A stretch of DNA of 59,823 nucleotides from Planctomycetota bacterium (GCA_965223505.1 CBDCWP010000017.1:1-59823); one strand, 5' to 3'. Shown: positions 3,169 through 34,898, numbered from the stretch's first letter. A program made the numbers and translations. Notes: generated from the letters alone by a model not told the origin.

Positions 3169-3192
3169 GTGTCGTGCACGACACCAAGTGAG
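3169..3192 (+). repeat. Minimal copy of the palindrome family: perfect 16-bp palindrome GTGTCGTGCACGACAC followed by CAAGTGAG
   Basis: Read directly; intergenic between larB and carA; same ends as the units at 25793-26413 and 31074-31252. Confidence 0.8.
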
Positions 3193-3239
3193 GGTCTCCG
3201 GCACCCCAACCCGCGCCCGAACCTCGAGTTGCCCCCCGA

Positions 3240-4007
3240 CTATGCGCGCTCCCCGCCGCCGTTGATAAGCGCGGCGAGGTACCCCGCACCGAAGCCGTTG
3301 TCGACGTTGACCACGCAGACGTTGGGCGCGCAGGCGTTCAGCATCGAGAGCAGGGGGGCCAGGCCGTCGAGGCTCATGCCGTACCCCACGCTCGTGGGCA
3401 ACGCGATCACGGGCACGTCGGCCAGCCCGCCGACGACGCTCGGCAGCGCGCCGTCCATGCCCGCGGCCACGATGATCACGCGGGCGCGGCGCACGCGCTC
3501 GACCTCGCCGAGAATGCGGTGCAGACCCGCGACGCCGACGTCGTACACGACCTCCGGCGCCTCCCCCATCAACGTCGCCGTCACGCGGGCCTCTTCGGCG
3601 ACCGGCACGTCACCGGTCCCGGCGGTCGCGATCAACACGCCTGGGCGTCCCTCTACCGCGGCGCCGCGGCGAACGCTGACCGCGCGGGCACGCTCGTGGT
3701 GCACCGCATCCGGCACGGCTTCGAGCAGGGCCCGAGCCCGCTCTGCATCGACACGCGTAACCAGCAGCTTCTCGCTGCGCTCGAGGATCTCGGACGCGAT
3801 GGCGACGAGATCCGCGACCGGCTTCGACGCGCCCAACACGACCTCCGGGAAGCCGCACCGCAGCGCTCGATGATGATCGACGTGCGCCACGCGGTTCTCG
3901 CCGTTGGTCGCGGGGAGCACCCCCGCGAGCTGTTCGGCCGCGTCGCCGACGCCGACCGCGCCCGTCCGCACGCCCTCCAGAAGCTGTTTCACCGCGTCGC
4001 GGTCCAT
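3240..4007 (-). CDS. larB: Nickel pincer cofactor biosynthesis protein LarB (PurE-like)
   Basis: DHHRALRCGFPEVV, TAGTGDVPVAEEA, DVGVAGLHR, AGMDGALPSVVGGL, PTSVGYG and VNVDNGFGAG motifs; start ATG 4007. Confidence 0.93.
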   Translation of the reverse strand: MDRDAVKQLLEGVRTGAVGVGDAAEQLAGVLPATNGENRVAHVDHHRALRCGFPEVVLGASKPVADLVAIASEILERSEKLLVTRVDAERARALLEAVPDAVHHERARAVSVRRGAAVEGRPGVLIATAGTGDVPVAEEARVTATLMGEAPEVVYDVGVAGLHRILGEVERVRRARVIIVAAGMDGALPSVVGGLADVPVIALPTSVGYGMSLDGLAPLLSMLNACAPNVCVVNVDNGFGAGYLAALINGGGERA

Positions 4008-4068
4008 GCGCACATCGTAAGGAGCAGGCGGCGGGCGGCGAGCCCGGAACAGGTGTATCCTCTCTGCC

Positions 4069-4764
4069 ATGCACGAAGCGCCGCTCGACGTACCCACCAT
4101 CCTCGATCGCTTCGAGGGCGTTGCGCGCATCTTCCCGCTGCCCAGCCTCGTGCTCTTCCCGGACAGCTTCGTCCCGCTCAAGATCTTCGAGAAGCGGTAC
4201 ATCACGATGGTGCAGGACGCGCTCGAGGGCGACGAGCTGATCGCGCTGGCGCTGCTCCGTCCGGGCTGGGAGAAGGACTATCAGGCCGCGCCGCCGATCC
4301 ACCCCGTGGTGTGCCTCGGCAAGATCCTCAAGTACCACCAGCTCCCGACGGGCAAGTACGACATCTACCTCTACGGGTTGGTGCGCGCGCACATCGAAGA
4401 GGAGCTGCCGTCCGAGCCCTATCGCAAGGCGCGGGTCAAGATCCTCGAGGAGTACGCGCAGCCCTCGCAGGCCGAACAGATCGCCAAGCGCATGCGGCGC
4501 GCGCTCGACCTCGTGCCCGGACGCCAGTCGACCATCTGGGAGCTTCGGCGCATGGCGAACCAGCTGCGCGGCGTGGACTCCGCGCCCGGCCGGTACGCCG
4601 ACGCAGTCGCCAATGCCAGCGATCTGCAGCCCGAGGACCGATACCAGGTGCTCGAAGAGTGCGACGTGCTCGAACGCTTCAACCGCCTCATCGACATCCT
4701 CGAGTCGCGTGCCTACGAGGGCGCGCCGGACGTACCGCCGAACCTCAATCCTCGGCTGAACTGA
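4069..4764 (+). CDS. LON peptidase substrate-binding (N-terminal) domain protein
   Basis: IFPLPSLVLFP..VPLKIFEKRY..MVQDAL motif; no AAA or protease domain. Confidence 0.88.
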   Translation: MHEAPLDVPTILDRFEGVARIFPLPSLVLFPDSFVPLKIFEKRYITMVQDALEGDELIALALLRPGWEKDYQAAPPIHPVVCLGKILKYHQLPTGKYDIYLYGLVRAHIEEELPSEPYRKARVKILEEYAQPSQAEQIAKRMRRALDLVPGRQSTIWELRRMANQLRGVDSAPGRYADAVANASDLQPEDRYQVLEECDVLERFNRLIDILESRAYEGAPDVPPNLNPRLN

Positions 4765-4888
4765 CGCGGTAAGACCGGGCCGGCTGACGACCGTCACGTG
4801 GCTTGCGAGCAGACCCGCTCCCCTCGCCGAATGGGCGTATCCCGCTCCCGATCCGGCTCCCGCTCCCGACGCGGGCCTGGCGATCTCC

Positions 4889-4922
4889 CTCGCGTGTCGT
4901 GCTCGTGAACGTGCACGACACC
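4889..4922 (+). repeat. Short copy of the palindrome family (CTCGC-GTGTCGTG-12 nt-CACGACAC), preceded by CCCGCT-type hexamer repeats
   Basis: GTGTCGTG at 4894-4901 and CACGACAC at 4914-4921, between convergent genes; cccgctcccgatccggctcccgctcccg at about 4841-4868. Confidence 0.75.
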
Positions 4923-4940
4923 CTCACCTAGGTGCCCGTC

Positions 4941-6761
4941 CTATCGCGGCACGCGCGCGGCGGAAAGCGCCGTCAGAAGCGCTTCGCCGACGACCTCGCC
5001 GGCGTCGGCGCCGTACAGCGTCACGCGCGACTCGTACGTCTCCTGCGCGTACTCCTCGGACGTCGTCAGGTAGGCGCACACGCCGTTCGTCAGGCCGAAG
5101 ATCAACGTGTCCGCGTACCCGAGTCCGGTCGCCGCCTCGCGCCACGCCTTGCCGAGCGCCTGGGTGGCTTCGCCCGGCAGCCAAAGCGCGGCGAACGCCT
5201 CCTCGGTGTCCCCGTCGAACGACGAGAGCGCGAACGTCATCGCGCCGAATCGGCTACGCCGTTCCGTCACGTGATCGTACAGGTTCACCACCGTCCCGAA
5301 GCTGCCGTCGAACGTGAATCCGACGCGCATCTCGGTGCAGGTCGTGCACCAAAGCGCGAAATTGACCGGCAGCGCGAGCGCGTTCTCGACCCAACCGTCT
5401 TCGGACAGGAGTCCCCGGCCCGGGCCGTCGAGAAACGACGCCCGTTCCCCGCTGGTGATGACCGCGTGGGGCGTTCCCAGATCGCGCTCGACGTCCGCGC
5501 AGCGCATGCGCAACAGCGGCAACGGCCGGCATGCCTCGACGTCACGCGCCACGACGTCGGCGAAGCGTCGCGCCAGCTCCGCGAGCCGCTCGGTGGCGTC
5601 CGTGTGACCCGTGTGAATCGGCGAGACATCGCCGACGGCGCCGTTGACGAACAGCACCGTCGCTCGGAGCCGCGCGCCGACCCCGACCTCCAGCGCGAGC
5701 GCGAGGTCGCCGTCGTACTCGGCGTGTTGGCGCTTGTACACCGTGGGATGGACCGCGTAGTTCAGCAGGAGGGTCTGCAGCCTGCTTTGCCGGTCGTACA
5801 CCGCGATCCCGTACACGCGGTCGTCGATGTCGCCCGGATCGCGGCGGCGGTTACGCGCAAGCACGGCCGCGCCGTCATCGTGGTCGCGGCTGCGCAGCAG
5901 CGCGACGTTGGCGGGCGTCGCCGTCAGATGCGCCGTCTCGATCGCTTTCACCGCAGCATCGACGACGGCGTCGAACACCCGTTGGTCGAAGTGTCCGGTT
6001 CCGACGACCTCCGACAGCGGCTGCCGGCTGTAGGCGCCCGGGCCGCTGTGCGTGTGCGTGGAGCTCACGGTGACGGTCTCCGCGCGGTAGCCGAGTCGAG
6101 CGACCCGCCCGAGGATGGCCTGGGTCAGCAGCGCGTCCCCGGTCGCGAGGTCGACGCGCACGAACGCAACGGGGGCGGCGTTCGGCGCCTCCTCCGGCAC
6201 GAGAACGAGGGCGTGCGCCCCCAGCAGCCGGTTGGGGCGTCGCGACGACTGGAAGATCGGCCATCGCGCGAGGCCGTTCTCGTCGCGGCGCCCCATGACG
6301 AACTGGGTCATCCGCCCGAGGGGTCCCATCCCGGCGAAGGCCGGCAGGTTCACGCGCCGCGGCCGCGTACCCCATCCCGCCAGCGGCGTGCCGGCGGGCA
6401 GCTCGAACGGCATGGCGCCGACACCTGCGCGAACCGTCGTACCGCGGCCCCAGTCGTGCACCCGCGGCTCGGACACGGGCCCGGCGGGTTCGAGCGCGGA
6501 CTCGCTCACGCCGACGGCGCCCCAGAACCCGATGTGGAGGAGCACGGCGAGTCGGTAGACGCGGCGCATCAACGGCCGCGCGCGAACGACGATCAACAGA
6601 CCCGAGAGCGCCAGCCAGACACCGAACGCGAAGACGCCGGCGAAGATCGGCGACACGAACGGCAGCACGGTCAGTCCGACGATGCCGGTCGCGCCCAGCG
6701 GCACCAGCTCGTTTCCCAGCCGGCGCAGCGGCCCGCCCGGACCGTAGACGAGGCTGATCAA
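4941..6761 (-). CDS. Neutral/alkaline ceramidase-like metallo-amidohydrolase with an N-terminal membrane region
   Basis: STHTHSGP, NYAVHPT, NGAVGDVSP, PGEAT and GLTNG..AY motifs; hydrophobic N-terminus. TTG start uncertain. Confidence 0.75.
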   Translation of the reverse strand: MISLVYGPGGPLRRLGNELVPLGATGIVGLTVLPFVSPIFAGVFAFGVWLALSGLLIVVRARPLMRRVYRLAVLLHIGFWGAVGVSESALEPAGPVSEPRVHDWGRGTTVRAGVGAMPFELPAGTPLAGWGTRPRRVNLPAFAGMGPLGRMTQFVMGRRDENGLARWPIFQSSRRPNRLLGAHALVLVPEEAPNAAPVAFVRVDLATGDALLTQAILGRVARLGYRAETVTVSSTHTHSGPGAYSRQPLSEVVGTGHFDQRVFDAVVDAAVKAIETAHLTATPANVALLRSRDHDDGAAVLARNRRRDPGDIDDRVYGIAVYDRQSRLQTLLLNYAVHPTVYKRQHAEYDGDLALALEVGVGARLRATVLFVNGAVGDVSPIHTGHTDATERLAELARRFADVVARDVEACRPLPLLRMRCADVERDLGTPHAVITSGERASFLDGPGRGLLSEDGWVENALALPVNFALWCTTCTEMRVGFTFDGSFGTVVNLYDHVTERRSRFGAMTFALSSFDGDTEEAFAALWLPGEATQALGKAWREAATGLGYADTLIFGLTNGVCAYLTTSEEYAQETYESRVTLYGADAGEVVGEALLTALSAARVPR

Positions 6762-6850
6762 CGCGGCCTCCGTGATCGGGGGCCTCCCAAAACGGGTGGC
6801 CCGACGGGGTCGAGGGTACCTTCCGGGATTGCAGGTCGAAGGAACCCCTC

Positions 6851-7879
6851 ATGAGCAGCCATCGCGTCGCGTTTCTGGCAGGAGACGGAATTGGACCGGA
6901 GGTGAGCGAAGCGGCGCGGCGCGTCGTGGACGCCTCCGGCATGGAGATCGAGTGGGTCGAGGCCACCATCGGCCTCGGGGCGATCGAGTCCCACGGTGAC
7001 GCGCTGCCCGCCGAGGCCCTCGCGGTCATCCGGGACTGCGCCGTCGCCCTGAAGGGCCCCACCACCACGCCGATCGGCGGCGGTCACGTCTCCGCGAACG
7101 TGCGTCTGCGCAAGGAGCTCGAGCTCTTCGCCAACGTGCGGCCTGTCAAGACGGTGCCCGGCCTCGAAACGCCGTATGGGCCGGTCGACATGGTGATCGT
7201 CCGCGAGAACACGGAGAGCCTGTACGCGGGTCTGGAGAACGAGGTCGCGCCGGGCGTCGTCACTTCCTTGAAAGTCATCACCGACCGCGCCTGCCGTCGG
7301 ATCTCGCGCTTCGCCTTCGAGTACGCGGCGCGCTGGGACCGCAAGGAGGTGACCGCCGTTCACAAGGCCAACATCATGAAGCTGGCAGACGGCCTCTTCC
7401 TCGACTGCGCCCGCCGGGCGGCCGAGGAGCAGTCGGGTGACGTCAAGTTCTCGGACGTGTTGGTGGACGCGCTCTGCATGCACATGGTCAAGGACCCGTC
7501 CCGCTACGACGTCCTGCTCCTGGAGAATCTGTACGGCGACATCGTCAGCGACCTCGCCGCGGGCCTGATCGGCGGCCTCGGGCTCGCGCCGGGCGGCAAC
7601 TACGGCACCGACTGCGCCGTGTTCGAGGCGATCCACGGCTCGGCGCCCGACATCGCGGGCAAGGGCGTCGCGAATCCGATCGCCATGATTCTCTCGGGCG
7701 CCATGATGTGCCACCACCTCGGGCATCCCGACAACTACACGCGCATTCGCCGGGGCGTCGCGGACGTCACGCGCAATCGCAAGGACGTCCTCACGCCGGA
7801 TCTCGGCGGAAGCGGCACGACCGAGGGCTTGACGGAGGCCATCATGGAGGCCGTCCGCGCCCAACCCGTCCCTGCCTGA
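6851..7879 (+). CDS. Isocitrate/isopropylmalate dehydrogenase family protein (probably NAD-dependent IDH)
   Basis: GDGIGPEV, SANVRLRK, RENTE..Y, VHKANIMK, NLYGDIVSDL, FEAIHGSAPDIAG and TPDLGG motifs. Confidence 0.93.
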   Translation: MSSHRVAFLAGDGIGPEVSEAARRVVDASGMEIEWVEATIGLGAIESHGDALPAEALAVIRDCAVALKGPTTTPIGGGHVSANVRLRKELELFANVRPVKTVPGLETPYGPVDMVIVRENTESLYAGLENEVAPGVVTSLKVITDRACRRISRFAFEYAARWDRKEVTAVHKANIMKLADGLFLDCARRAAEEQSGDVKFSDVLVDALCMHMVKDPSRYDVLLLENLYGDIVSDLAAGLIGGLGLAPGGNYGTDCAVFEAIHGSAPDIAGKGVANPIAMILSGAMMCHHLGHPDNYTRIRRGVADVTRNRKDVLTPDLGGSGTTEGLTEAIMEAVRAQPVPA

Positions 7880-7895
7880 TCGGAGTCCGCCCGGC

Positions 7896-8642
7896 ATGAA
7901 GCGCGTCTTGCTCGCCATCGGGATCACCGTCGTTCTGAGCACGATTGCACTCGCGCTCATGCTCGCAAGTGGAGACGAGACGCGGCAGGCTGAAGCCGAG
8001 CGGTTCGTGAAGCTCGCGTGGACGAACGACCCGGCGGAAGCCATAGGCGCCCTTTCTCCGGGTCTGCTCATGCAAAGCCCCATGGAACGCGTCGAGCAGC
8101 GTCTTCGCTACTATCGCACCTTGCTCGGTCCGTTCATCGAGACCGAGGACGTGGTGTCGTCCGAGCTGACCGACCGGGGCAAGAAGAGTACGCTCGTCCT
8201 GCGGATGAAGTTCGAGAGAGCGAGCAGCGTCGCGCGCTTCGAGTTCGAGAAGCTGGGGGAAACGTGGGTCGTATCGAGCTTCGCCTTCGAGGTGCCGGAG
8301 GCCCTGCATCCGAAGCCGGAGTGGAAGCACGTACGGTCGAATGCGGAGTACGCCGTTCGCAGCTGGACGGAAGGCAACGTGGAGGCGCTACGCGACTACT
8401 TCACACCGGGCTACCGCGACCAATACTCGACCGCCGCACTCGAAAGGGAACATGCCGAGCTGAGCGGCGGCCTGGGCGGCGGTGAATCGGTCGAGTACGT
8501 CGACCACGAAGAGCTCGGCGACGGACGTCGCAAGATGCGCTTCCGGATCCAGTTCGAGAACGGCGCCGCCGTCATGGAGCTGACGCTGCGGTGGAGATTC
8601 GCCGAAGGCACGATCGAGCGACACGACGTTCGGCGCGAGTAG
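7896..8642 (+). CDS. Exported or membrane-anchored hypothetical protein with two tandem similar (DUF3887-like) domains
   Basis: N-terminal hydrophobic helix; two halves resemble each other (AERFV..W..D...AI..LSP / AEYAV..W..G...AL..FTP, each with a later FE turn). Confidence 0.65.
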   Translation: MKRVLLAIGITVVLSTIALALMLASGDETRQAEAERFVKLAWTNDPAEAIGALSPGLLMQSPMERVEQRLRYYRTLLGPFIETEDVVSSELTDRGKKSTLVLRMKFERASSVARFEFEKLGETWVVSSFAFEVPEALHPKPEWKHVRSNAEYAVRSWTEGNVEALRDYFTPGYRDQYSTAALEREHAELSGGLGGGESVEYVDHEELGDGRRKMRFRIQFENGAAVMELTLRWRFAEGTIERHDVRRE

Positions 8643-8646
8643 CGGA

Positions 8647-9495: not shown

Positions 9496-9506
9496 CCTCC
9501 GCTGTC

Positions 9507-10685: not shown

Positions 10686-10698
10686 GCGCGACAGAAGG

Positions 10699-11871
10699 TT
10701 AGTCCTTCTTCTTCGCTCTTGCCCTTTTGATCATCATGGTCCGTTTGGCCTTCTCCTTGTTGGAGATGCCGGCCTCGTTCGGGTCCGGCAGGCCCGCCGC
10801 GGGATCGGCGTCCTCCGCCGGCGCGGCGGCGGCGGGTGCGGCAGCGGCCTTCGCCCGCGCGCGCTTGATCATCATCGTTCGCTTGGCCTTCTCCTTGTTG
10901 GAGATGCCCGGCTCGTCCGGATCGGGCATGCCGGCTGCGGGGTCGGCCGGAGCGGCCGCGGGCGCTGCCGCGGCGCCCTTCGCGCGGGCGCGCTTGATCA
11001 TCATCGTGCGCTTGGCCTTCTCCTTGTTGGAGATGCCCGGCTCGTTCGGATCGGGCAGGCCCGCCGCGGGATCGGCGGCGGGAGCCGCCGCGGCGCCCTT
11101 GGCGCGAGCACGCTTGATCATCATCGTGCGCTTGGCCTTCTCCTTGTTGGAGATGCCCGGCTCGTTCGGATCGGGCATGCCTGCCGCAGGATCGGCCGCG
11201 GCCGGAGCCGCCGCACCGCTCTTGATCGCGCGCATGCGCATGACCGTGCGACGCGCCTTCTCCTTGTTGGAGATGCCGGGCTCGTCCGGGTCGGGCATCC
11301 CGGCGACGGCGGCCGAGGCGCCGGACTTGGCCTTGCGCGCCGCTTCCTTGGCCGCCTTCTCCTTGGCGAGGCGGTCCATGCGGGTCTTCTTCACCGCAGC
11401 GATCTCGTCCGCGTAGGCCTTGGCCTCGCGCGCCTGCGCCTCCTCCGCGAGCGGCCGCAACTCGTCGAGCACGGCCAGCTTCTCGGCGCGGATCGACTGC
11501 AACATCGTGCGCGCCAGGCCCATGTTGGCGGGCAGGTCCGCCAACGCGTTCTCGTAACGCACGACGTCGTCCTCGAGCGCCCCGATCACGAATCCGGCGA
11601 GGTACGGAACCGTCAGGTAGTTGAGGTCGCGGTGCCAGTACGGGAACGCGCCCGGCTCGGGAACGCGATCCAGCGACTCGATGATCTGCGCCAGCATGCG
11701 CGCGTGGCTGCGCTCTTGCCGTCGCGCGTCACGCAGCGAGGTCAGCACGTCCTGATCGCCGTCCGTGACGTACGGCTGCGACTCGAAGACGTACCCGGTC
11801 GCGCTGTAGTACGAACGCGTGAACAGGTCGTTCAGCTTGCCAACCAGGTCGGAAGAGACGGTGATCTGCAT
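10699..11871 (-). CDS. Ferritin-like N-terminal domain protein with five C-terminal Lys/Ala-rich repeats
   Basis: Helical N-terminal domain with ERSH (ExxH-like); five G(M/L)PDP(D/N)EPGISNKEKAKRTMMIKRARAK units. Starts 6 nt after the nuoN stop with a GGAGG RBS. Confidence 0.8.
   Translation of the reverse strand: MQITVSSDLVGKLNDLFTRSYYSATGYVFESQPYVTDGDQDVLTSLRDARRQERSHARMLAQIIESLDRVPEPGAFPYWHRDLNYLTVPYLAGFVIGALEDDVVRYENALADLPANMGLARTMLQSIRAEKLAVLDELRPLAEEAQAREAKAYADEIAAVKKTRMDRLAKEKAAKEAARKAKSGASAAVAGMPDPDEPGISNKEKARRTVMRMRAIKSGAAAPAAADPAAGMPDPNEPGISNKEKAKRTMMIKRARAKGAAAAPAADPAAGLPDPNEPGISNKEKAKRTMMIKRARAKGAAAAPAAAPADPAAGMPDPDEPGISNKEKAKRTMMIKRARAKAAAAPAAAAPAEDADPAAGLPDPNEAGISNKEKAKRTMMIKRARAKKKD
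10702..11304 (-). repeat. Intragenic tandem repeat, 5 units of about 120-138 bp
   Basis: ccttctccttgttggagatgcc core recurs five times at 120-138 bp spacing. Confidence 0.95.
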
Positions 11872-11877
11872 GGACCG

Positions 11878-14946: not shown

Positions 14947-17016
14947 CTACAAAATCTGTTGGAGAACGAGGGCGAGGGCCACCGCGCCCACGCTCAGAGA
15001 GAGATAGAGACGGACGCGGCCACTCTGGGTGGCGCTGACGCCCGCACCTAGTACCTGCATGATCCAGCCGGTGAACGTCACCAGCCCGTCGACGATCTTG
15101 CTGTCGTGCCAGCCGGAACCCGTGGCCGCCTTGATGCCGCCCTCGCCGATCCGGTTCACTGCGCCGTCGACCCCGTGCTTGTCAACGAATCCGCACAGTC
15201 GCGCCGCGGCGTAGCCCGGCTTGAGGACGGCCTCGCGATACAGCTCGTCGAACCAGAACTTGTTCTGGAAGGCCTTCTCCAGCCAGCCGAAACGGGCCTT
15301 CATCCGCGGCACCCTCGAAGCGTTTCTGAGGAAGACCAGCCAGCCCAGAGCAAGACCGCCCAGGCCGGCGATCACGGCGAGCGCCATCACGAAATTGCTG
15401 TGCTCCTGCCCGACCGACAGGACGGTGCGTCCGGCGGCGTCGCTCTCGACGGCGTCGAGGGCCGCTTGCGCCGCCACCTTGGCGTCACCGTCCGCCACGG
15501 CGACGGCCTCGCGGAGCGCGGGTACGCCCGCTTCGTTGGCGCCCCATGCCGTGAAGTGCGTTCCGTCCCACGTCATGGCGCCCGGGTCGAGCAGCGTCGT
15601 GTGCCAGCCGTAGCCGGCGATCACCGCGAGCACGGCGAGGATCACGAGCGGTGCGGTCAAGGACGGACCGCCCTCGTGCGCGTGGTCGTAGATCTTCTGA
15701 TCGCGCGGCTCGCCAAGGAACGTCATGACGAAGAGTCGCGTCATGTAAAACGCGGTGAGGATCGCCGCCGCGAGACCGACCCAGAACAGCACCGGGAACC
15801 GCGCCCACGCGGCCGAGAGGATCGCGTCCTTCGAGTAGAAGCCCGAGAGGAACGGGAAGCCCGCGATGGCGAGCACGCCGATCGCGAACGTCCAGCCCGT
15901 GATCGGCATCTTCTTGAGCAGCCCGCCCATCTTGCGCATGTCCTGCTCGTGGTGGCAGGCGTGGATGACGCTGCCCGAGCCGAGGAACATGAGCGCCTTG
16001 AAGAAGGCGTGCGTCGTCAGATGGAAGAGGCCCGCGTGCCACGCGCCGCAGCCGAGCCCGAGGAACATGTAGCCGAGCTGGCTGACGGTCGAGTATGCCA
16101 ACACCTTCTTGATGTCGTCCTGCGCGAGCGCGATGAAGCCGGCCATCAGTCCGGTGACCGCGCCGACCGTGGCGACGACGGTGAGGGCGTCGGGCGAGAG
16201 CATCGGCATCATGCGGCCGACGAGGTAGACGCCCGCGGCGACCATCGTGGCGGCGTGGATCAACGCGCTGACCGGCGTCGGGCCTTCCATCGCGTCCGGC
16301 AGCCAGACGTGCAGCGGCGCCTGCGCGCTCTTGCCGATGGCCGCGCAGAACAGCCCGAGGCCCGCGACCGTCAACCACGTGTCGTCGAACGCTCCGTTCG
16401 CGACGGCGGCAAAGATCGCGTCGAATTCGAACGAGCCCACCGCGGCGTAGATCGCCATGATCGCGACCATCATGCCGAGATCGCCGATGCGTGTGGTGAT
16501 GAAGGCCTTGCGCGCCGCGTTCGCCGGATCCGGCTTCTCGCTCCAGAAGCCGATGAGCTTGTAGGAACACAGGCCCACCAGCTCCCAGCCCATGAAGAGA
16601 TGCAGCAGGTTGTTCGCCAGCACCAGAATGAGCATGGCGACGGAGAACATCTGCAGCCAGGCGAAGAAGTTGGCGTACTTCGGATCGCCGTGCATGTACC
16701 CCATGCTGAAGACGTGCACGAGGAAGGCGACGACCGAGACGACGAACAGCATCACGGCCGTCAGGCCGTCGATGTAGATGCCGATGCTCCAGGGCTCCCC
16801 GCCGGCGCCGCCGGGGTCGAACCAGGGGACCGAGACCTCGAACGGCCCTGCCCCGCCCCAGATCCGGATCAGGATGATGATCGAGCAGACCATCGAGATG
16901 CCGATGGCGCCGACCGTCATCCAGTCGCCCTGGCGCGGCAGCTTCCTACCCCAGCAGAACTGGATCACGAAGCCGACGAGCGGCGCGATCAGGATGGTGA
17001 GTGCGAGCTCGGTCAT
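14947..17016 (-). CDS. nuoL: NADH-quinone oxidoreductase subunit L
   Basis: GKSAQAPLHVWLPDAMEGPTPVSALIHAATMV, AYSTVSQLGYM and HAFFKALMFL motifs. Confidence 0.97.
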   Translation of the reverse strand: MTELALTILIAPLVGFVIQFCWGRKLPRQGDWMTVGAIGISMVCSIIILIRIWGGAGPFEVSVPWFDPGGAGGEPWSIGIYIDGLTAVMLFVVSVVAFLVHVFSMGYMHGDPKYANFFAWLQMFSVAMLILVLANNLLHLFMGWELVGLCSYKLIGFWSEKPDPANAARKAFITTRIGDLGMMVAIMAIYAAVGSFEFDAIFAAVANGAFDDTWLTVAGLGLFCAAIGKSAQAPLHVWLPDAMEGPTPVSALIHAATMVAAGVYLVGRMMPMLSPDALTVVATVGAVTGLMAGFIALAQDDIKKVLAYSTVSQLGYMFLGLGCGAWHAGLFHLTTHAFFKALMFLGSGSVIHACHHEQDMRKMGGLLKKMPITGWTFAIGVLAIAGFPFLSGFYSKDAILSAAWARFPVLFWVGLAAAILTAFYMTRLFVMTFLGEPRDQKIYDHAHEGGPSLTAPLVILAVLAVIAGYGWHTTLLDPGAMTWDGTHFTAWGANEAGVPALREAVAVADGDAKVAAQAALDAVESDAAGRTVLSVGQEHSNFVMALAVIAGLGGLALGWLVFLRNASRVPRMKARFGWLEKAFQNKFWFDELYREAVLKPGYAAARLCGFVDKHGVDGAVNRIGEGGIKAATGSGWHDSKIVDGLVTFTGWIMQVLGAGVSATQSGRVRLYLSLSVGAVALALVLQQIL

Positions 17017-25062: not shown

Positions 25063-25135
25063 GCCGGGAACGTCGACTGCGAGCGTCGTTGACTGCGAGG
25101 GTGATTCTCGCGGCTGACCGCGAACTGAGACCTGC

Positions 25136-25173
25136 GTGTCGTGGTCGATACCGTGCCCGTGACCGTGCGCGTG
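25136..25173 (+). repeat. Left 38-bp inverted repeat upstream of the four-helix-bundle gene
   Basis: GTGTCGTGGTCGATACCGTGCCCGTGACCGTGCGCGTG matches the reverse complement of 25933-25970 at 34/38 positions. Confidence 0.85.
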
Positions 25174-25344
25174 GGCTCTCGAGCCGCTGTTCGCCGCCCG
25201 CGTGAGCCGTTGCCTGAGTTCGACGGTTCGGAGCGCTGCGTGACCGTCGCCTGTCGTCGCGCGAAGACCTGATCTCAGACGGGCGCCAAGATCGCCCGCC
25301 ATGCGTGTGAGGGCGATCGGCGCCCTCGCCACCGGAGATCATCC

Positions 25345-25722
25345 ATGAACGATCTACCTGCCGGCGGATTCGCGCATCTGCGCCTTGACGCCTACCACAT
25401 CGCGCAAGATCTTGCGACTGAGTGCGTGCAGCGCACGAAGGACATCCCGCGCGGCTTCGCCGAGGTGCGTTGTCAGGCACAGCGAAGCGCGTTGGCAACG
25501 GTCCGGCACATTGCCGAGGGCGCCGAACGCGAAACGCCCGCGGACAAGTCCGCGCGCTTCATCCTCGCACGTAGCGAGGTAGCCGAGCTTGACGCGACCC
25601 TCGATACTGCGATTCGGCTCGCTCTCGTCCCACCCGAGCAAGGCGACGAACTCCGCGCCCTCGCCTCACGGGTCGGAGCAATGTTGAACGGTCTCATCCG
25701 CAGACAGCGGTCTTTGCAGTAG
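25345..25722 (+). CDS. Four helix bundle protein (23S rRNA IVP / Avd-like superfamily)
   Basis: F.H.RLDAY..A, P.G, Q..RSA....HIAEG..R, F..AR....E and V.AML.GL pattern; 125 aa; GGAG RBS. Confidence 0.85.
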   Translation: MNDLPAGGFAHLRLDAYHIAQDLATECVQRTKDIPRGFAEVRCQAQRSALATVRHIAEGAERETPADKSARFILARSEVAELDATLDTAIRLALVPPEQGDELRALASRVGAMLNGLIRRQRSLQ

Positions 25723-25758
25723 CCAGGAGCACTTCTGCCGCGCGCGAAAGGTGCCGAC

Positions 25759-26462
25759 AGTCGGACGGCCGACAATGCGTGTGCCTCCTCGCGTGTCGAG
25801 CACGTGCCCGCTCTCGGTCTCGTGCCCGTGGTTCGCCGCGTCAGCCACACTTCCCTCGCCTGCCGGGTGAATCCATGAACCGGGCGGGAGGGCGCATTCC
25901 TCTGATACGAAGGCCTTGCGGAGATCAGAACACACGGGAACGGTCACGGGCACGGTATCGGGCACGACACCAAGATGAGAGTCGGACGACCGACAATGCG
26001 TGTGCCTCCTCGCGTGTCGTGCACGTGCCCGCTCTCGGTCTCGCGCCCGTGGTTCGCCGCGTCAGCCACACTTCCCGCGCCTGCCGGGTGACTCCATGAG
26101 CCGGGCGGGAGGGCGCACTCCTCTGATACGAAGGCCTTGCGGAGATCAGGACACACGGGAACGGTCACGGGCACGGTATCGGGCACGACACCAAGATGAG
26201 AGTCGGACGACCGACAATGCGTGTGCCTCCTCGCGTGTCGTGCACGTGCCCGCTCTCGGTCTCGCGCCCGTGGTTCGCCGCGTCAGCCACACTTCCCGCG
26301 CCTGCCGGGTGAATCCATGAACCGGGCGGGAGGGCGCACTCCTCTGGATACGAAGGCCTTGCGGAGATCAGGACACACGGGAACGGTCACGGGCACGGTA
26401 TCGGGCACGACACCAAGATGAGAGTCGGACGACCGACAATGCGCGTGCCCGCTCGCGTGTCG
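25759..26462 (+). repeat. Tandem array of about 3.2 copies of a 221-bp structured non-coding unit
   Basis: agtcggac(g)(a/g)ccgacaatgcg recurs at 25759, 25980, 26201 and 26423 (period 221, 221, 222); units nearly identical. Confidence 0.97.
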
Positions 26463-28216: not shown

Positions 28217-28225
28217 GCGATGTCG

Positions 28226-28561: not shown

Positions 28562-28652
28562 GTCGGGCTCCTCGTGGAACTTTCCTCATTATAGGTTCCA
28601 CTGCGGCCCGACCGCCCATTTCCGCACCGGACGTCGATAAGATGCTCGTCCC

Positions 28653-30998
28653 ATGCGACCGATTCTGCCTCTCCTGATCGTCGTGACAGCGCTGGCGCTG
28701 TTCGGCTACGCCTGGATGAAGAGCGGCCCGCGGGAGGACGACGGCGCCGGCAACGGCGCGGACGCGCCCGACGCGCGCGGCACGTACCTGACCGACGAGC
28801 AGCGCGTTCGGCTCTTCGACCTCGAGCGCGCCGATCTGCTCCTGGGCCGCGCGCTGAAGCCCTGGACCGAGGCGATTCGGGCCAAGGACCGCGAGCGCAT
28901 CGGCGCAGCCCTGGCGTCGTCGTTCGAAGGGCGCTGTCCGATCGTGCCGAGCGGCGTGGAACGTCGCGCCGGCGGCGGGCTCGTTTTCGGACATGCGCGA
29001 CTCGAAGGCGCCGACGCGAAGACCGCAGAGACGTTCCTTGCGTGGATCATGGATCTGACGTCGAGGTTCGACCGCATCGACGCCGTGAAGTTCGGCCGGC
29101 GCTACAACAGTGTCGAGATCCTGGAGGGGCCGCAGGGCCGCGCCGAGAGCACCGGCACATGGCGGGTCGCGGGCGTGCGCGACGGCAGCGCACCGCTCGA
29201 GGTGTCGGGCAAGTTCCGTCTCCGGCACCGCGGCATGTCCCCGGACGCGCCGGTAGAGAATCCATGGATCTTCGGCCTGGAGCTCTTCGACGTCTCGGTG
29301 GTTCATGCCGAGCGCCCGCTCTTCCGGGAGATCACCGCGGACACCGGCATCGACGTCGACGGGCTGCATGACAACTGGCGGCCGGAGCATCTCGAGAAGT
29401 CCTTCCAGATCTTGACGGGCGGCATCTACCTGGGCGATGTGAACGGTGACGACCATCTCGACGCGCTCGTCACGGACGTGCACAGGACATGGCTCTACAT
29501 CGGCAAGGGCGACGGGAGCTTCGTGGACAGCGGTTGGAACCCGAAGGTGCCGGAACGGGTCTACGCGGCGCTCTTCGACGCGACGGGTGACGGACGGGTC
29601 GACGTGCTGCTCGACGGCCTGCTGTACGAATTCGACCCTCGGCAGGGCAAGCCCGTGCCGATCGAAGGCGCGACGCGCATGCCGAACGGCGACGCGAGCT
29701 TGTGTGACTACGACCGCGACGGACTCGTCGACGTGTACTTCCGCGACAGCGGGCGGTTCTACCCCGGCGACCAGCCTCGGGCGTTCTTCGACAACGACCG
29801 CATCGCGGGGCGCGAGAACCTGCTCTTCCGCAACCTGGGCGGCGGCAAGTTCGAGGACGTCACCGCCCTCGCGAAAGCCTCCGGAGGCTTCGGACGGACG
29901 TTCGCGACGACCTGGTTCTACGCCGACGGCGACGAGTGGCCCGACGTGTTCTGCGCGAACGAGTTCGGACGCAACGCGTTGCTGATCAACAACGGCGACG
30001 GCACCTTCGACGACGGGCCCGAGATCGACGCCCAGTTCGGCGGATTCTCGATGGGCGTCACCGCCGGAGATCTCGACGACGATGGGGTCACCGACCTCTA
30101 CGTGTCGAACATGTACTCCAAGGCGGGGCACCGTGTGTATCACCACCTCGACCTCGACGCGTACCCGCCGAACGTGCGGCGGATGTTCATGGCCTCGATC
30201 AAGGGCAACAAGTACTACCGCGGAAGGACGGGCACGGCGTTCGACGACTGGAGCTTCGACGCGGGCGTGAACGAGGTCGGCTGGGGTTGGTCCGGCGCGA
30301 TGGCCGACTTCGACCTGAACGGCCGGCTCGACATCTACGCACCGTGCGGACACTCGTCGGCGGACAAATCGAAGCCGGACGGGTGAGGCTGTGTCTGGCA
30401 GGCTGTGGCTGCGCAGCCGTTCAACACCTCCAAGAGACACTCGGCGCCGCGCGACCCCGACGAGCGGGTCAACGAGTTCTGGCTCGAGAACCCGTTCGAC
30501 TTCGAGCGCCGCAAGGGCTTCAACCTCTCGATGTACGAGCGCAACCGGATGTTCCTCAACATGGACGGGCGCAGTTTCGCGGAAGCGTCGCACGTCAGCG
30601 CAACGGACATCGATGCCGACTCGCGCGCGGTCGCCGTCGGCGACCTCAACGAGGACGGACGTCCGGACTTGATCGTGCGGTCGGTGGGTGGCGGCGTGTT
30701 GCGGGTGTACCTCAATCAGATTCCCGCGCGCGCGTCGGTACGGGTCACGTTGCGAGGCAGGCGCTCGAACAGCGCCGGGATCGGCGCGCGGATGGTGATG
30801 GACCTGGGCGGCCGCAAGCTGCATCGGGACCACTTTCCGCAGAACAGCCTCATGGCGCAGACGGCGACGGAGACGATCTTCGGGCTCGGGGACTACGACG
30901 GACCCATGACGCTGACGATCACGTGGCCGTCGGGCGCGGTGCAGGTCGTCGAGAACGTCAAGCCGGGGCGACATGTGATCGAAGAACCGGACGCATAG
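28653..30998 (+). CDS. FG-GAP/VCBS-repeat + ASPIC/UnbV (CRTAC1-like) protein with an in-frame TGA at 30384-30386; candidate selenoprotein, alternatively two genes or a pseudogene
   Basis: ORFs 28653-30386 and 30405-30998 are in the same frame. DxDxDG repeats occur on both sides of the TGA; the C-terminus has SNSAGIGAR, FGLG and ITWPSG. Confidence 0.7.
30387..30418 (+). promoter_or_regulatory. Candidate bacterial SECIS hairpin
   Basis: GGCTGTG-GCTG-CGCAGCC (30401-30418) forms a 7-bp stem with a 4-nt loop starting with G; 21 nt lie between the TGA and the loop. Confidence 0.55.
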
Positions 30999-31070
30999 AT
31001 CGGGCCAGAGGACGACGGTGCGTTGAGGAGGCGGTGCGCGCCGATCACAGCCCCGACGTTCCCTCGGCCC

Positions 31071-31319
31071 CGCGTGTCGTGACCGTGCCCGTTGGCGTTC
31101 CCGTGACCGTCGTTCGCCGAGTCAGCCACGCTTCCCTCGTTTGCCGGGTGACTCCCGACGCCCGACGGGAGGACGCATTTCTCCGAAACGAGAGGCTTGT
31201 CGACGACCAGGACACACGGGCACGGGAACGGGCACGGTATCGGGCACGACACCAAGGTGAGCGTTGCACGGCCAGCGTTGCGCGTTCCTCATCGCGTGTC
31301 GTGCACGCCACCAGGTGAG
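31071..31319 (+). repeat. Diverged solo copy of the 221-bp unit (179-bp element + 43-bp linker + degenerate minimal palindrome)
   Basis: GTGTCGTG at 31074 to CACGACAC ending 31252; shared blocks gttcgccg.gtcagccac.cttccctcg, gccgggtga.tcc and gggcacggtatcgggcacgacaccaag; between convergent genes. Confidence 0.9.
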
Positions 31320-31341
31320 AGGCCGCCCTCCCGAACGGCGC

Positions 31342-32331
31342 TCAACGCTCCGACTCGCCGTCGATCCGTCGCGCATCCTCCATCAGGTTGATGTCGTACA
31401 GCACCTGATCCAACCAGTCGCCCGCCTGGATCGCGCCCTCGCGCTGCGGATGCTCCGCATCGATGCACGTCGGCAACGGAACCAGAATCGTCCGCGGCGT
31501 GGGGTGGCAGAACTGGACGACCGAAAATCGCTCCTCCGTCTGCGCCGGGTCCGCGACGACCCGATGCGTACCCGCCGGGATCCGACCGTTCGACAAGAGC
31601 GCCAGCATCATGCCCGTGTTCAGGATCGCGGCGTTCTCCGGCGGCGCGGCATCGACGTACGCGCCTTCCACGCTCACCTGCAATCCGCGCGACGTCGCGC
31701 GCGGCAGTGCCGTGATGAGATTGATGTCGTCGTGCGCCTCGGCCCAGATGTGGCCGCCCTCCGGCGCCTCCCCCATCGGCGGATACCGAATCGCACGACA
31801 CAGCGTCGGCCCCTCCTTCAACATGCCGTCGAAGAACGAAGGATGCACTCCCAATCCCTCCGCGATGATGCGCAGGAAGCGCCGCTGAAGGTCGAGCAGC
31901 CGGTCGTACAGCAACGTGAGCGCCGCGGCGATGCCCGGCACGTCGGGCTCCGGAAACACCCGCTCCATGTACCGGTGGGGAAAGGCACGCCGAAGCGGAT
32001 GGCCTTCGGGCAGCTCGATGCCCCAGTTGAGCATCTCTTTCCAATCCGGCCGGTCCGCGACGGCCGCCGCTTCGACCATCAACCCCGTGTACCCGGTCTG
32101 CCCCATGGAACCGGGCCGCACGTACGCCTCCTTCGTCGCCCTGGGAAGGTGGAAAAAGGCGGCGAGCATCTCGTACGCGTCGTCGATGACCCCCTGGGGG
32201 ACGTCATGCTGCGCGTAGACGAATCCCGTTTGCAGGCTGCGCATGACGCCGTCGACGACGCTCTTGCGCTGTGTACGGTCGCCGCGCTCGTAGCGCAGCA
32301 GATCGACGTCGAGAATGCGGGCGGACGTCAT
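31342..32331 (-). CDS. Isopenicillin N synthase family 2OG-Fe(II) oxygenase
   Basis: GFVY..H, RAIRYPP, HDD (HxD), NTG.ML..LSNG, THRV and RFSVVQF motifs. Confidence 0.9.
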   Translation of the reverse strand: MTSARILDVDLLRYERGDRTQRKSVVDGVMRSLQTGFVYAQHDVPQGVIDDAYEMLAAFFHLPRATKEAYVRPGSMGQTGYTGLMVEAAAVADRPDWKEMLNWGIELPEGHPLRRAFPHRYMERVFPEPDVPGIAAALTLLYDRLLDLQRRFLRIIAEGLGVHPSFFDGMLKEGPTLCRAIRYPPMGEAPEGGHIWAEAHDDINLITALPRATSRGLQVSVEGAYVDAAPPENAAILNTGMMLALLSNGRIPAGTHRVVADPAQTEERFSVVQFCHPTPRTILVPLPTCIDAEHPQREGAIQAGDWLDQVLYDINLMEDARRIDGESER

Positions 32332-32350
32332 GCGGCTCCGGCCGGATTCG

Positions 32351-32791
32351 CTACCCGCCCGGACCGTCGGCCGCGAGGTACTGCTCGAGCGAGTCCACGT
32401 CGATCTTCAGCCGCTCGATCTGATGCGTCTGCAGATGCCGGATCGAGAGCATGCCTGCCAGCCCGCCGTCCGTGCCGACGATCGGCAGATGCCGGAAGTG
32501 ATTGGTCATCATCAGCTCCAGCGCTTCGGACCGGGGCGTGTTCGACTGGATGCTGACGGGATTGCGGACCATGACCTCCGCCACCGGCGTCCGTTTCGCA
32601 TCGAGACCCTCGTGCACGACCTTCGTCATGAGGTCGCGCTCCGTGAAAATGCCCACGAGACTGCCCTCTTCGACGACCGCGACCGCACCGATGCGCGTTT
32701 CGACCATGAGGCGCACGGCTTCGTCCACCTTGGACGTCACGGAAACGGTCTTGGCGGGTGTCCGGGCGATCTTCAGCAGGGGTTCATTCAT
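32351..32791 (-). CDS. CBS domain-containing protein
   Basis: IGAVAVV..LVGIFTERDL and FRHLPIV..LAGMLSIR motifs; start ATG 32791. Confidence 0.9.
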   Translation of the reverse strand: MNEPLLKIARTPAKTVSVTSKVDEAVRLMVETRIGAVAVVEEGSLVGIFTERDLMTKVVHEGLDAKRTPVAEVMVRNPVSIQSNTPRSEALELMMTNHFRHLPIVGTDGGLAGMLSIRHLQTHQIERLKIDVDSLEQYLAADGPGG

Positions 32792-32844
32792 GGGGGCTCC
32801 AAAACACAGTCTATCAGCGACGGGCAGCGCCATCAACGGGGCCT

Positions 32845-32873
32845 GTAGCGTGTGTACGCATCGCGTACGCACG
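32845..32873 (+). repeat. GTAG-type REP-like hairpin (second family)
   Basis: GTAG followed by the CGTGTGTACGC-ATC-GCGTACGCACG hairpin, in an intergenic space. Confidence 0.55.
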
Positions 32874-32923
32874 ATGAACGATGATTGAAGACGCAGTCCG
32901 GTCGAAGCAGAGACGATTCGCGG

Positions 32924-34726
32924 CTATTCGCCGCTCTGCGCGGCGAGACGCTCCTCTCGACGACGCTTGATGTGATCGAGGTCGTCGCGCGGCACCGCAT
33001 CGATGAGGCGTTTCGTGTACGCCTCCTTCGGATTCGCGTAGATCGCTTCCGCCGTCCCGAACTCGACGATCTTCCCGTCCTTCATCACCGCCATCGTGTC
33101 CGACATGAACTTCACGACCGAGAGGTCGTGACTGATGAAGATGTACGTGAGACCGTGCTTTTCCTGCAGGTCCTTGAGCAAGTTGAGCACCTGCGCTTGC
33201 ACGGAGACGTCCAGTGCCGACACCGACTCGTCGCAAACGATGAACGACGGGTCGAGCGCGAGGGCGCGCGCGATGGAGATGCGCTGGCGTTGCCCGCCGG
33301 AGAACTCGTGCGGATAGCGGTTCATGTGGTTCGCTTCGAGGCCGACTTCCTCGAGCAGCTGGGCCACACGATCGGTGCGCTCGCCCTTCGTGCGGTAGAG
33401 CCTGTGGACCTCCATCGGCTCCGCGATCATGTCGCCGACGGTCATGCGCGGGTTCAACGACGAGTACGGATCCTGGAAGATGATCTGCAGCTTGCGACGA
33501 AGCTCCCGGAACTCCTTGGCCGGGATCTCGGCGAGGTTCTGCCGTTCGTAGATCACGTTGCCGGTGACCTGGATCCCGCCCTTGTTCTCGATGAGGCGCA
33601 GCAGCGCGCGGCCGCAGGTCGTCTTGCCGCAGCCGGACTCGCCGACGAGGCCGAGCGTCTGACCGGGCCAGACCTTGAACGAGACGCCGTCGACCGCGCG
33701 GACGTAGTCGTGAACACGGCTGAACACACCCTTGCGGATCGGAAAGTGCACGTGGAGATCGTCGACCACGAGGAGCGGGTCGCCGTCGGGATCGGTCAGC
33801 TTGTCGCGGCCGGTCGTCTCGAGCTTCTTGAGCTCCGCGTCGGACACGTCTTTCTCGGTGATGACGAGCTGGTGGTCGTCGTCGAGATGCCAGTCCATGA
33901 ACGTCGACGTCGTCGGCAGCCGGCGGAACTTGGTGTCGAGATTCGGGCGGCATGCGAGCAGGCTGCGCGTGTAGGCGTGCTTCGGGCTCTCGAAGATGTC
34001 GAGCACGGGGCCGAACTCGACCAGGTGTCCCTGGAACATGACCGCGACATCGTCGGAGATCTCCGCGATGACGCCGAGGTCGTGCGTGATGAACATGATC
34101 GACATGCCGCGGTTGTCACGCAGGTCCCGCATCAGATCGAGGATCTGGGCCTGGATGGTCACGTCGAGCGCGGTGGTCGGCTCGTCCGCGATGAGCAGCT
34201 TCGGGTTGCAGGACAGCGCCATGGCGATCATGACGCGCTGCTTCTGGCCACCGGACATCTCGTGCGGGTAGCTGTCGATGCGGCGTTCGGGATCGGGGAT
34301 GTCGACCTCGCGGAAGAGCTCGAGCACGCGCTCGCGCGCTTCTTCCTTGCTGACGTCCTCGTGGACGAGGATCGGCTCCATGACCTGGTCGCCGACGGTG
34401 AACACGGGGTTCAGCGACGTCATGGGTTCCTGGAAGATCATGCCGATGTCGGCGCCGCGGATGTCGCGCATCTCGCGCTGCGGCACGCCGACGAGGTCCT
34501 TGCCGAGGAAGGCGATCTTGCCGGCGTGGATCCGGGCGGTCTCGGGCGGCAGGAGCCGCATCATCGAGAGGGCGGTGACGGACTTGCCGGAGCCGGACTC
34601 GCCGACCACACCGAGGGTCTCACCCTCTTCGATGCGGATGGAGACGTCGTCGACGGCGCGGACGACTCGATCCTCGGTGTGGAAGTAGGTCTTGAGTCCG
34701 CTGATGTCGAGCAGGGGTTGGGACAT
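32924..34726 (-). CDS. Peptide/nickel ABC transporter ATP-binding protein, fused double ATPase
   Basis: GESGSGKS and GESGCGKT Walker A motifs; YPHEMSGGQ and YPHEFSGGQ signatures; start ATG 34726. Confidence 0.95.
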
Positions 34727-34850
34727 AGGCGCCGGATTCTCGGGGGCTCCCGGCCGCCTGTCAAACGCGGCGGCCGACCGCACCGGTCCGGGCGCGCACG
34801 AGCAGGCCTCCCGTGGCTCCCCCTACCCCATCCCGATCCCTCTCCGGCGT

Positions 34851-34898
34851 TCCTCCTCGCGTGTCGTGCACGTTCTCGGTGTCGGCCACGACACCAAG
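34851..34898 (+). repeat. Short copy of the palindrome family (CCTCCTCGC-GTGTCGTG-18 nt-CACGACAC-CAAG)
   Basis: GTGTCGTG at 34861-34868 and CACGACAC at 34887-34894; flanks match the array linker ends. Confidence 0.85.

Follow-up and report, generated by a model that had tools for sequence, protein, structure and literature searches.

Among described systems, the intervening sequences (IVSs) of bacterial 23S rRNA genes, which lie in a helix of that rRNA, have a stem excised by RNase III, and include gene-less hairpins in Salmonella, come close to the element considered here. In Coxiella burnetii and Leptospira, an open reading frame (ORF) of the S23p type lies between the terminal inverted repeats of the IVS, and those of Coxiella can form a 28-bp stem; passages of the same account propose the IVS as a selfish or mobile element whose ORF might serve its mobility, and cite a pentameric structure, XCC0516, for the protein family PF05635 (PMC4990558). 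According to part of a second account, PF05635 resembles Avd, the nucleic-acid-handling protein of diversity-generating retroelements (PMC10053308). Here we describe a family of palindromes in 59,823 nt of planctomycete DNA (Planctomycetota bacterium, GCA_965223505.1, CBDCWP010000017.1:1-59823). This whole stretch, hereafter the window, is the entire contig C17 of a 5.15-Mb assembly (67% G+C, 44 contigs, 92.5% complete). An initial annotation of the window had noticed dispersed copies with constant ends and an interior of differing length (N, in nt). The reading we prefer, to which we give a probability of about 0.55, is that these palindromes are the arms of a foldback family whose gene-bearing form is a small, IVS-like four-helix-bundle cassette of selfish appearance, and that the copies in the window are mostly gene-less members behaving like repetitive extragenic palindromic (REP) sequences or miniature inverted-repeat transposable elements (MITEs).

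Bacterial MITEs (Correia/NEMIS, ERIC, and Nezha) are small, non-coding, and intergenic, have terminal inverted repeats, and outnumber their gene-bearing relative, while the attC sites of integrons are imperfect palindromes with conserved ends and a variable centre that are thought to be active as folded single strands. Repeats of the REP and MITE kinds are usually explained by a matching transposase; here the sole gene between arms belongs to the 23S rRNA IVS/Avd-like family, whose function outside diversity-generating retroelements has, to our knowledge, been open for about 30 years. REPs are defined, in the portion of the survey by Di Nocera et al. (2013) that bears on this, as short stem-loops with an unpaired tetranucleotide, GTAG or CGTC, at one end; Planctomycetes have REPs of the GTAG kind, other conserved tracts regularly adjoin some REP families, and CGTC repeats are described without a dedicated transposase (PMC3733652).

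The gene-bearing copy lies at 25130-25975 and is made up of the following features.

25130-25178, minus strand: left arm, an inverted copy of the right arm (nhmmer E 6e-11)
25270-25341, plus strand: leader hairpin (RNA fold -39.9 kcal/mol, z -3.55, equalled by 0 of 200 shuffles)
25345-25722, plus strand: four-helix-bundle gene of 125 aa, of the 23S rRNA intervening-sequence protein/Avd-like family
25927-25975: right arm paired with 25130-25178, at the end of the first unit of a tandem array

The 125-aa protein matches PF05635 (5.5e-15), TIGR02436 (6.3e-14), and Protein Data Bank entry 2gsc, which is XCC0516 (1.9e-7), and the 3′ strand of the leader hairpin contains GGAG directly before the ATG of its gene. 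The left arm is 86 to 89% identical to right arms over 38 to 44 nt, with 38 of 44 positions complementary in an ungapped alignment. We found that this pair (25124...25983) is the sole inverted arm pair enclosing a gene, and the copy is the only one with an S23p-family ORF inside terminal inverted repeats, the arrangement that characterizes an ORF-bearing IVS. The layout of a PF05635 gene, a folded leader, and inverted 6-nt arrays recurs in relatives. The ends around the gene (25136...25970) had been read as one palindrome with N = 819; these ends are present, but they do not form a single simple hairpin, since between them lie both the gene and a gene-less unit that has a left end of its own, GTGTCGAG.

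The other copies in the window have only arms in common with the gene-bearing one. They comprise an array of 3.2 units, one full foldback (N = 163), and four collapsed minis (N = 0, 0, 12, and 18), set out below with the tracts beside them.

3169-3193, plus strand: mini-copy A with its outer CAAGTGAGG flank, a perfect 16-nt palindrome (3169-3184, N = 0); 92% identical over 26 nt to 31294-31319 (D2)
4838-4870, plus strand: C-rich period-6 tract of TCCCGN units beside copy B, with related stretches at C16:19909-20019
4894-4921, plus strand: short foldback B (N = 12, without CAAG), whose left end is like that of C16 and is joined to a GAACGTGCACGACAC-type right end
25759-26462, plus strand: tandem array, 3.2 x 221 bp (Tandem Repeats Finder, 97% matches), with palindromic units at 26014-26191 (N = 162) and 26235-26413 (N = 163)
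31074-31261, plus strand: full-length gene-less foldback D1 (31074-31252, N = 163) and its CAAGGTGAG flank; identity to the array unit is 80% over 194 nt
31262-31319, plus strand: rest of a 43-nt spacer (31253-31295) and mini-copy D2 (31296-31311, N = 0, one mismatch) with its CAGGTGAGAG flank
34815-34845, plus strand: C-rich hexamer-like tract beside copy E, read from the sequence and below the strict period-6 detector
34861-34898, plus strand: collapsed copy E (34861-34894, N = 18), with ~24 nt from a left arm of the array type fused to the right end CACGACACCAAG

Every copy listed in the initial annotation is present where it had been placed, and the C-rich hexamer tracts it reported beside some of them (4838-4870 and 34815-34845) are real. 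In an array unit, a 43-nt spacer containing a small hairpin precedes the left arm, and an interior separates this arm from the right one. The right arms fall at 25930-25983, 26149-26204, and 26371-26426 (nhmmer E ~1e-12); over 37 nt, copy E has 86% identity to the left portion of such a unit. Small ORFs running through the array were rejected because its 221-bp period is not a multiple of three, which shifts the frame from unit to unit. A retron, suggested by the 162-nt interior, was likewise dropped, as the contig contains no reverse transcriptase. No Rfam family was matched at its gathering score across the full window, and the sole match around the array, mir-341 (E 0.68), is a chance one. 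Of note, the end of contig C16 (19909-20091) has, in another order, the C-rich tract and left arm together with ~40 nt that are also found upstream of copy B (4789-4900), which suggests that this end is an unresolved array at a contig break.

We compared the constant ends of the family with chance expectation. The 8-mer GTGTCGTG occurs 19 times on the two strands of the window against 3.89 ± 1.89 expected, a count reached by 0 of 100 shuffles, and chance is excluded for the copies originally listed. For the longer end CACGACACCAAG there are 6 exact matches, all on the plus strand, and 8 with at most one mismatch against 0.30 expected, the two with one mismatch, at 15097 and 33929, being within coding DNA and resembling chance matches. 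A scan of the whole genome had been proposed, and there the excess seen in the window does not extend to the bare 8-mer: its 302 matches are at the 87th percentile of 182 same-composition permutations, and 64% of them lie within ORFs. Six of the seven exact matches of the CAAG form in the genome are within C17. We define the family by its hexamer-tract arms of ~40 nt.

Each arm is a run of about six CG-phased hexamers with the consensus C/A, A/T, C, G, A/G/T, and any nucleotide at positions 1 to 6, closed by CACGACAC and followed by an outer (A/G)TGAG flank; exactly six hexamers are present in 12 of the 27 arms that have the terminal motif. In the gene-bearing type, the right arm is six NACGGN units, CACGACAC, and CAAGATGAG. 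Together with a preceding GTG(A)TCGTG, the arm end CACGACAC makes a mini-palindrome centred on GTGCAC. The right outer flank reads (C)AAG(A/G)TGAG, and the left one is a pyrimidine-rich near-complement of it (CCTCCTCGC, CCCACCTGC); as the two flanks are nearly complementary, the inverted repeat has CTCGC and CAAG...TGAG as its outermost portion, and in arrays they form the two ends of the 43-nt spacer. The short forms consist of hexamers alone: GTGTCG TGCACG ACAC when N = 0, four hexamers plus ACAC when N = 12, and five plus ACAC when N = 18. For this reason their interiors are multiples of six. The rule, first stated for interiors of 0, 12, 18, and 162 nt, holds for these, and the other long interiors (163 and 163 nt in the window, 116 nt at C1, and 160 nt at C38) depart from it.

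Right arms are 85 to 90% identical between loci while interiors cannot be aligned. The initial view of a genuine repeat family, constant at its ends and changing in the centre, is supported. When we aligned left arms with the reverse complement of right arms, the gaps were mostly of 6 nt; summed over 10 elements (leaving out two duplicate array units), there were 338 matches, 51 transversions, and 7 + 8 transitions in the two wobble classes, with mismatches mainly at the variable hexamer positions and no G-U asymmetry on either strand (7 versus 8). Three adjacent units of an array on C4 have 7, 5, and 4 hexamers. Given these 6-nt gaps, transversion mismatches, and varying unit counts, we consider that arms evolve through gain and loss of whole units without perfect pairing being preserved. 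Processing as a folded single strand, the initial inference, may or may not take place; the prevalence of transversions together with the 6-nt insertions and deletions argues that hexamer units are kept more than perfect pairing is. Folding is in keeping with this. As single-stranded DNA, copy B folds well (-11.9 kcal/mol, z -4.4, 0 of 200 shuffles), as does D1 (z -2.3, 3 of 200), whose two arms are one hexamer apart in length; the fold of copy E is marginal (z -1.8, 9 of 200), and those of the N = 0 copy and the array unit do not surpass shuffles.

A profile built from 16 arms (nhmmer, E<1e-3, supplemented by BLAST) found 32 arms at ~28 loci on 16 contigs of the genome. Of these arms, 28 lie outside ORFs with high G+C at third codon positions (those of at least 100 aa, covering 75% of the genome). 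Among 29 classifiable loci, 19 are between convergent genes, compared with 354 of 1822 intergenic regions genome-wide, and two were called divergent, of which one, 34861, is a miscall because the filter had removed the dUTPase gene. Five loci in the window are 20 to 130 nt from a flanking stop codon, as judged from ORF coordinates. The copies in the window, as first noted, are all intergenic by this map, provided that a carA-like ORF starts downstream of its longest possible start. In that longest form the ORF (1882-3204, minus strand) runs over palindrome A, but its CPSase Pfam domain begins only at residue 65, so the true start is probably downstream of the palindrome. Arms in the window are stand-alone foldbacks or single arms with NACGGN units, and the same is true at C1:11169-11300, at C38:223928-224103, and on C30, C18, C16, and C12; further stand-alone foldbacks lie at C39:346776-346992 (NACGTG units) and C7:32612-32790. 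A strict search for more inverted hexamer pairs returned only C7:32612-32790, with a detector that misses degenerate arms, including those of the window itself.

In the genome as a whole, five genes match PF05635 above the cut-off, and two further matches are weak. Upstream of all four strong ones that lie elsewhere than in the window there are a hairpin and hexamer tracts, G-rich or of another kind, and inverted CGGGAN tracts of ~30 nt bracket the gene on C31. A period-6 tract lies within 500 nt of 4 of the 7 matches, compared with 5% of random segments. Leaders that fold like 25270-25341 precede family genes in this genome and in related ones. We searched 40 related genomes (41 with our own, G000), which are akin to one another and hence not independent. 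The family proved patchy and multicopy, absent from 26 of the 40 and present in 21 copies in G026, 18 in G014, 7 in G038, 5 in G003, and 2 in G001, with many matches at contig ends. Among 27 loci fetched from relatives, a period-6 tract lies 500 nt or less away at 12, which include 11 of the 13 loci of G001, G003, G014, and G026; tract density is 0.53 per kb close to the gene and 0.11 farther off. The single tract in the low-G+C clade, whose Pfam scores are the best, looks like chance. The type of tract follows the protein clade, in this way.

NACGGN x3 tracts: only at our C17 and at locus L136 of G001, whose proteins are sisters in the tree (support 85/64)
NACGTG x3 tracts: only at the four G014 loci examined
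G3N3 tracts: at our C44, C12, and C39 with L152 of G001, and in the G026 clade

Arms of the GGGATN type belong to the other PF05635 clade of our genome. Across all 41 genomes, 28 or more matches to four successive NACGKN units occur only in G000, G001, G014, and G017, all four of which have a PF05635 gene, while each of the 26 genomes without such a gene has at most 11; this is an indication, among genomes akin to one another, that the count goes with gene presence.

The related genus represented by G001 has the same architecture, with the sister protein and many gene-less copies. There, the arm pattern has 45 matches (4 in the control) at 25 or more loci, and only two family genes are present. 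At least 20 loci are gene-less, set against one gene for the sister protein with NACGGN-type arms. Three of them (L162, L165, and L179) are gene-less foldbacks of ~200 to 230 nt, and three (L170, L176, and L181) are single right arms, of which L176 and L181 begin ~20 to 30 nt past a stop codon. All six end in TGAGCG or TGAGAG, as the copies in the window do, and they match the gene-bearing locus of the same genome over 63 to 83 nt at 77 to 85%.

Several further loci of the gene family were observed in passing. At L138, L149, L154, and L158 of G014, (GTGGAC)n microsatellites with as many as ~35 units flank the four-helix-bundle genes; this genome has 457 matches to the fourfold NACGKN pattern, and its 18 gene copies are clustered at 2.27 to 2.85 Mb of one contig. 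In our own genome, the leader hairpin and GGGATN tracts upstream of two four-helix-bundle genes are tandemly reiterated in units of ~100 nt (C12:7200-7800 and C44:21150-21500), and a truncated PF05635 fragment (profile positions 2 to 54 of 106) lies beside a 249-nt (GAACCC)n microsatellite at C39:152823-153417. The only RVT_1 match of the genome (22656-23300, E 2.2e-15) and, immediately downstream of it on one strand with it, a weak PF05635-like match (E 1.2e-4) lie at C43:22132-23300; this locus could be a diversity-generating retroelement or a reverse transcriptase with a four-helix-bundle tail. The 16S, 23S, and 5S rRNA genes are linked on C34, and the 23S gene (C34:218405-222063) is 3659 nt long owing to a group I intron (RF00028, 53.9 bits, E 7e-12); we found no IVS in it.

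On our preferred reading, the gene-less copies would be non-autonomous relatives of the cassette, as MITEs are of insertion sequences. They would multiply mainly by tandem duplication, with rare moves to new sites through a function acting in trans, and we infer both their descent from a gene-bearing form and a mobility beyond local duplication. Copies would collapse by deletion between short direct repeats at the arm bases, the textbook route for long palindromes. A GCACG pentamer is in fact present in both arms of the array units, adjoining the constant ends, and if a deletion joined these direct repeats, precisely the N = 0 palindrome would remain. The initial picture of fixed ends with variable cargo is right in that one copy carries a gene, but from its sequence the interior looks collapsible at least as much as expandable. 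Because the arms are kept while interiors vary, lengths change by whole hexamers, and arms pair imperfectly, the hexamer units would be recognized by a protein rather than merely form a stem. The four-helix-bundle protein, encoded between the arms, would be the natural and obvious candidate for this role. Persistence at the 3′ ends of genes may reflect that copies are harmless there.

A number of observations weigh against this reading. No HUH/RAYT gene (REP-associated tyrosine transposase, PF01797) was matched in the 92.5%-complete assembly, using a search that as a positive control found one in 6 of 14 genomes. No tyrosine recombinase is present in C17, and the nearest of 17 PF00589 matches is 4.3 kb from an arm on another contig; neither type of gene, for which a search beside the motif had been suggested, is linked to any arm. 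Between inverted arm pairs there is no transposase or other gene besides the four-helix-bundle gene, and the flanks of 7 elements compared by eye show no target-site duplication outside the arms (35-nt repeats around the C1 copy are array spacers). The interior of the array unit has no significant similarity to the four-helix-bundle leader (162 and 384 of 500 shuffles score as well), and we dropped the idea that it is a remnant of the leader. Because interiors cannot be aligned, gene-less copies need not descend from the gene-bearing one, and the gene could be a passenger. The N = 0 copy A (-4.9 kcal/mol, z +0.59) and the 221-bp array unit (z +1.0) fold no better than shuffles. Seventeen arms joined to REP hairpins have no cognate gene in the assembly. 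The joining of our C17 protein with that of G001 L136 is weak at the support given above, and blastn (E<=1e-3) of the elements of the window against the G001 loci found nothing, so the likeness between G000 and G001 is at motif level only. Finally, four public sequencing runs that contain the locus in low-depth contigs, probably the source samples, show neither presence/absence polymorphism nor structural variation.

The seventeen arms just mentioned are the core of the likeliest alternative, in which the hexamer tract ending in CACGACAC is a module of a mosaic of GTAG-type REP doublets forming hairpins (REPINs), belongs to an independent family of the REP or bacterial interspersed mosaic element (BIME) type moved or reiterated by a RAYT, and received the gene in one copy by accident. 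The genome contains 579 GTAGGGG/CCCCTAC heads, and 17 of the 32 arms lie within 120 nt of one, compared with 2% of random positions. These arms have NACGTG units, sit without exception between the ...CCCCTAC end of one GTAG-type REPIN and the REPIN that comes next, and form tandem arrays on C4 and C7. Their placement and clustering fit REP behavior in the portion of the survey we rely on (PMC3733652). Against this, the copies in the window are 3.5 to 9.7 kb from the nearest REP head and none adjoins a REPIN, the arms have no GTAG or CGTC tag, the assembly has no PF01797 match, and hexamer arms accompany the PF05635 gene in genera whose arms differ. We consider an independent REP/BIME family unlikely. 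The early statement that the palindromes match neither REP type stands for the window, where no copy has a tag, and falls for the genome, where half the arms, 17 of 32, abut GTAG REPINs as a linker. The likeness to REPs that the initial annotation drew, in extragenic position, location between convergent genes, and tandem reiteration, is confirmed; the analogy is right for behavior, not for membership. In the window itself, a GTAG-type REPIN (GTAGGGGCAGCCC...GGGTCGCCCCTAC) lies at 39307-39375 and single REP heads at 36436, 39411, 44877, and 58622.

A different kind of explanation makes the copies resident functional elements, such as bidirectional transcription stops, RNase III or stability hairpins at 3′ ends, or arrays of sites for a host protein, that are not mobile and were multiplied by local duplication alone. 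It accounts for the preponderance of convergent loci and the nearby stop codons, for arm sequence that is much better kept than the interiors, and for the good folds of B and D1. We nevertheless judge it quite improbable, for the hairpins are not followed by a T-run, neither the N = 0 copy nor the array unit folds better than its shuffles, and the mismatches, dominated by transversions, have no G-U bias. The family is moreover confined to one lineage (the arm pattern has 22 matches in our genome and 0 to 2 in each of the 40 nearest), and its copy number and tandem amplification are typical of selfish repeats. Plain hexanucleotide microsatellites, self-complementary by accident in the manner of CACGTG and having neither common descent nor identity as elements, would explain why unit number differs between neighboring copies and why period 6 is the commonest tandem class (30, versus 0, 7, 0, and 14 at periods 5, 7, 8, and 9), but loci have in common a non-repetitive CACGACAC end, an (A/G)TGAG flank, and a 43-nt spacer, and D1 matches the array over 194 nt, which leaves this idea very little room. 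The attC analogy, in which the palindromes are recombination sites of an integron-like cassette system, we regard as scarcely credible. Imperfect palindromes with fixed ends and a variable centre would suit it, as would the common orientation of all four orientable loci in the window, yet such agreement arises by chance once in 8 cases, the contig encodes neither a recombinase nor a transposase, no GTTRRRY core is present, and between copies lie housekeeping genes on both strands such as purA, carA, and the nuo operon. Housekeeping genes make up the contig in general, on either strand (purA, carA, a nuo cluster of 11 genes, an ABC ATPase, dUTPase, and others).

Outside these genomes, two large contig collections (genomes and metagenomes) contain no relatives of the arms and yielded no close relatives in which occupancy, as first proposed, might be compared among strains. 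We rejected 112 single arm-pattern matches in the genome collection, which come from unrelated organisms and reach at most 32.7 bits with nhmmer (40 to 51 for our better-scoring arms); the one whose sequence was inspected, L036, has a coding-looking context. Three matches in the metagenome collection, all in coding context, were rejected as well. The four public runs, which belong to one study and are probably the source samples, contain the locus as low-depth contigs identical to the window; these break within the array, and two records span locus D unchanged. No RNA runs are listed among the public runs containing the locus. Separately from the palindromes, a 120-nt tandem repeat (3.8 copies, 84% matches) occupies 10841-11304 within a high-GC3 ORF (10699-11871, minus strand) that has no Pfam match. 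In a literature search outside which subscription journals fell, neither this palindrome family nor a four-helix-bundle gene between hexamer arrays was the subject of any paper found, and the cassette family is apparently unpublished.

A bolder form of our preferred reading, which we put forward tentatively and would sooner bet against than for, is that the four-helix-bundle protein binds its own 6-nt arrays in a sequence-specific manner, so that gene and arms together would be a new mobile or self-maintaining element without a known transposase, the palindromes of the window its non-autonomous "MITEs", and the REPIN-linked tracts orphan arms. If the protein does bind its arms, this would be a new class of selfish element and would explain the origin of rRNA intervening sequences; if it does not, the palindromes are one more lineage-specific REP-like repeat. 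Next to one another, the window has a copy with the gene, an array of gene-less units that has been amplified, a complete copy lacking the gene, and collapsed remnants. In a second genus the pattern recurs with the same type of hexamer and a sister protein, and the two together provide a concrete, testable pairing of protein and 6-nt repeat.

Compared with known systems, the gene-bearing copy is like the ORF-bearing 23S rRNA IVSs in having a family gene between terminal inverted repeats, as these are described in the part of PMC4990558 cited above. It differs in that copies here lie between protein genes and not in rRNA genes, the 23S rRNA gene of the organism itself being free of IVSs, and in that the arms are 6-nt repeat arrays, with many intergenic and mostly gene-less copies, tandem arrays, and REPIN linkage. 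With Avd of diversity-generating retroelements, the protein has its superfamily in common, on the resemblance drawn in the passage of PMC10053308 noted above, whereas the window contains neither a reverse transcriptase nor a pair of template and variable repeats, the sole RVT_1 match being that on C43. Likeness to REPs and BIMEs, as far as the relevant part of PMC3733652 describes them, extends to extragenic palindromes, clusters, dimers, and reiteration with flanking DNA. In contrast to REPs, the ends GTGTCGTG and CACGACAC contain no GTAG or CGTC tag or its complement, the arms are hexamer repeats of ~40 nt instead of stems of 8 to 13 bp, one copy has a gene, and no RAYT or TIRYT gene flanked by arms was found in the assembly; the linker arrangement of BIMEs, in which REPs of alternating orientation are reiterated with conserved motifs between them, applies after ...CCCCTAC to the 17 arms elsewhere in the genome and to no copy in the window. 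As in MITEs, small intergenic copies with terminal inverted repeats and without coding capacity outnumber the gene-bearing one, but no target-site duplication was seen, and the sole gene-bearing relative encodes a four-helix-bundle protein and no known transposase. From attC sites the palindromes are set apart by the lack of IntI, of a GTTRRRY core, and of a cassette organization of the intervening genes. We conclude that what is new here is a set of foldback, REP-like repeats that are tied to an IVS-like cassette and that fall outside membership of the REPs, the MITEs, the attC sites, and the rRNA IVSs alike.

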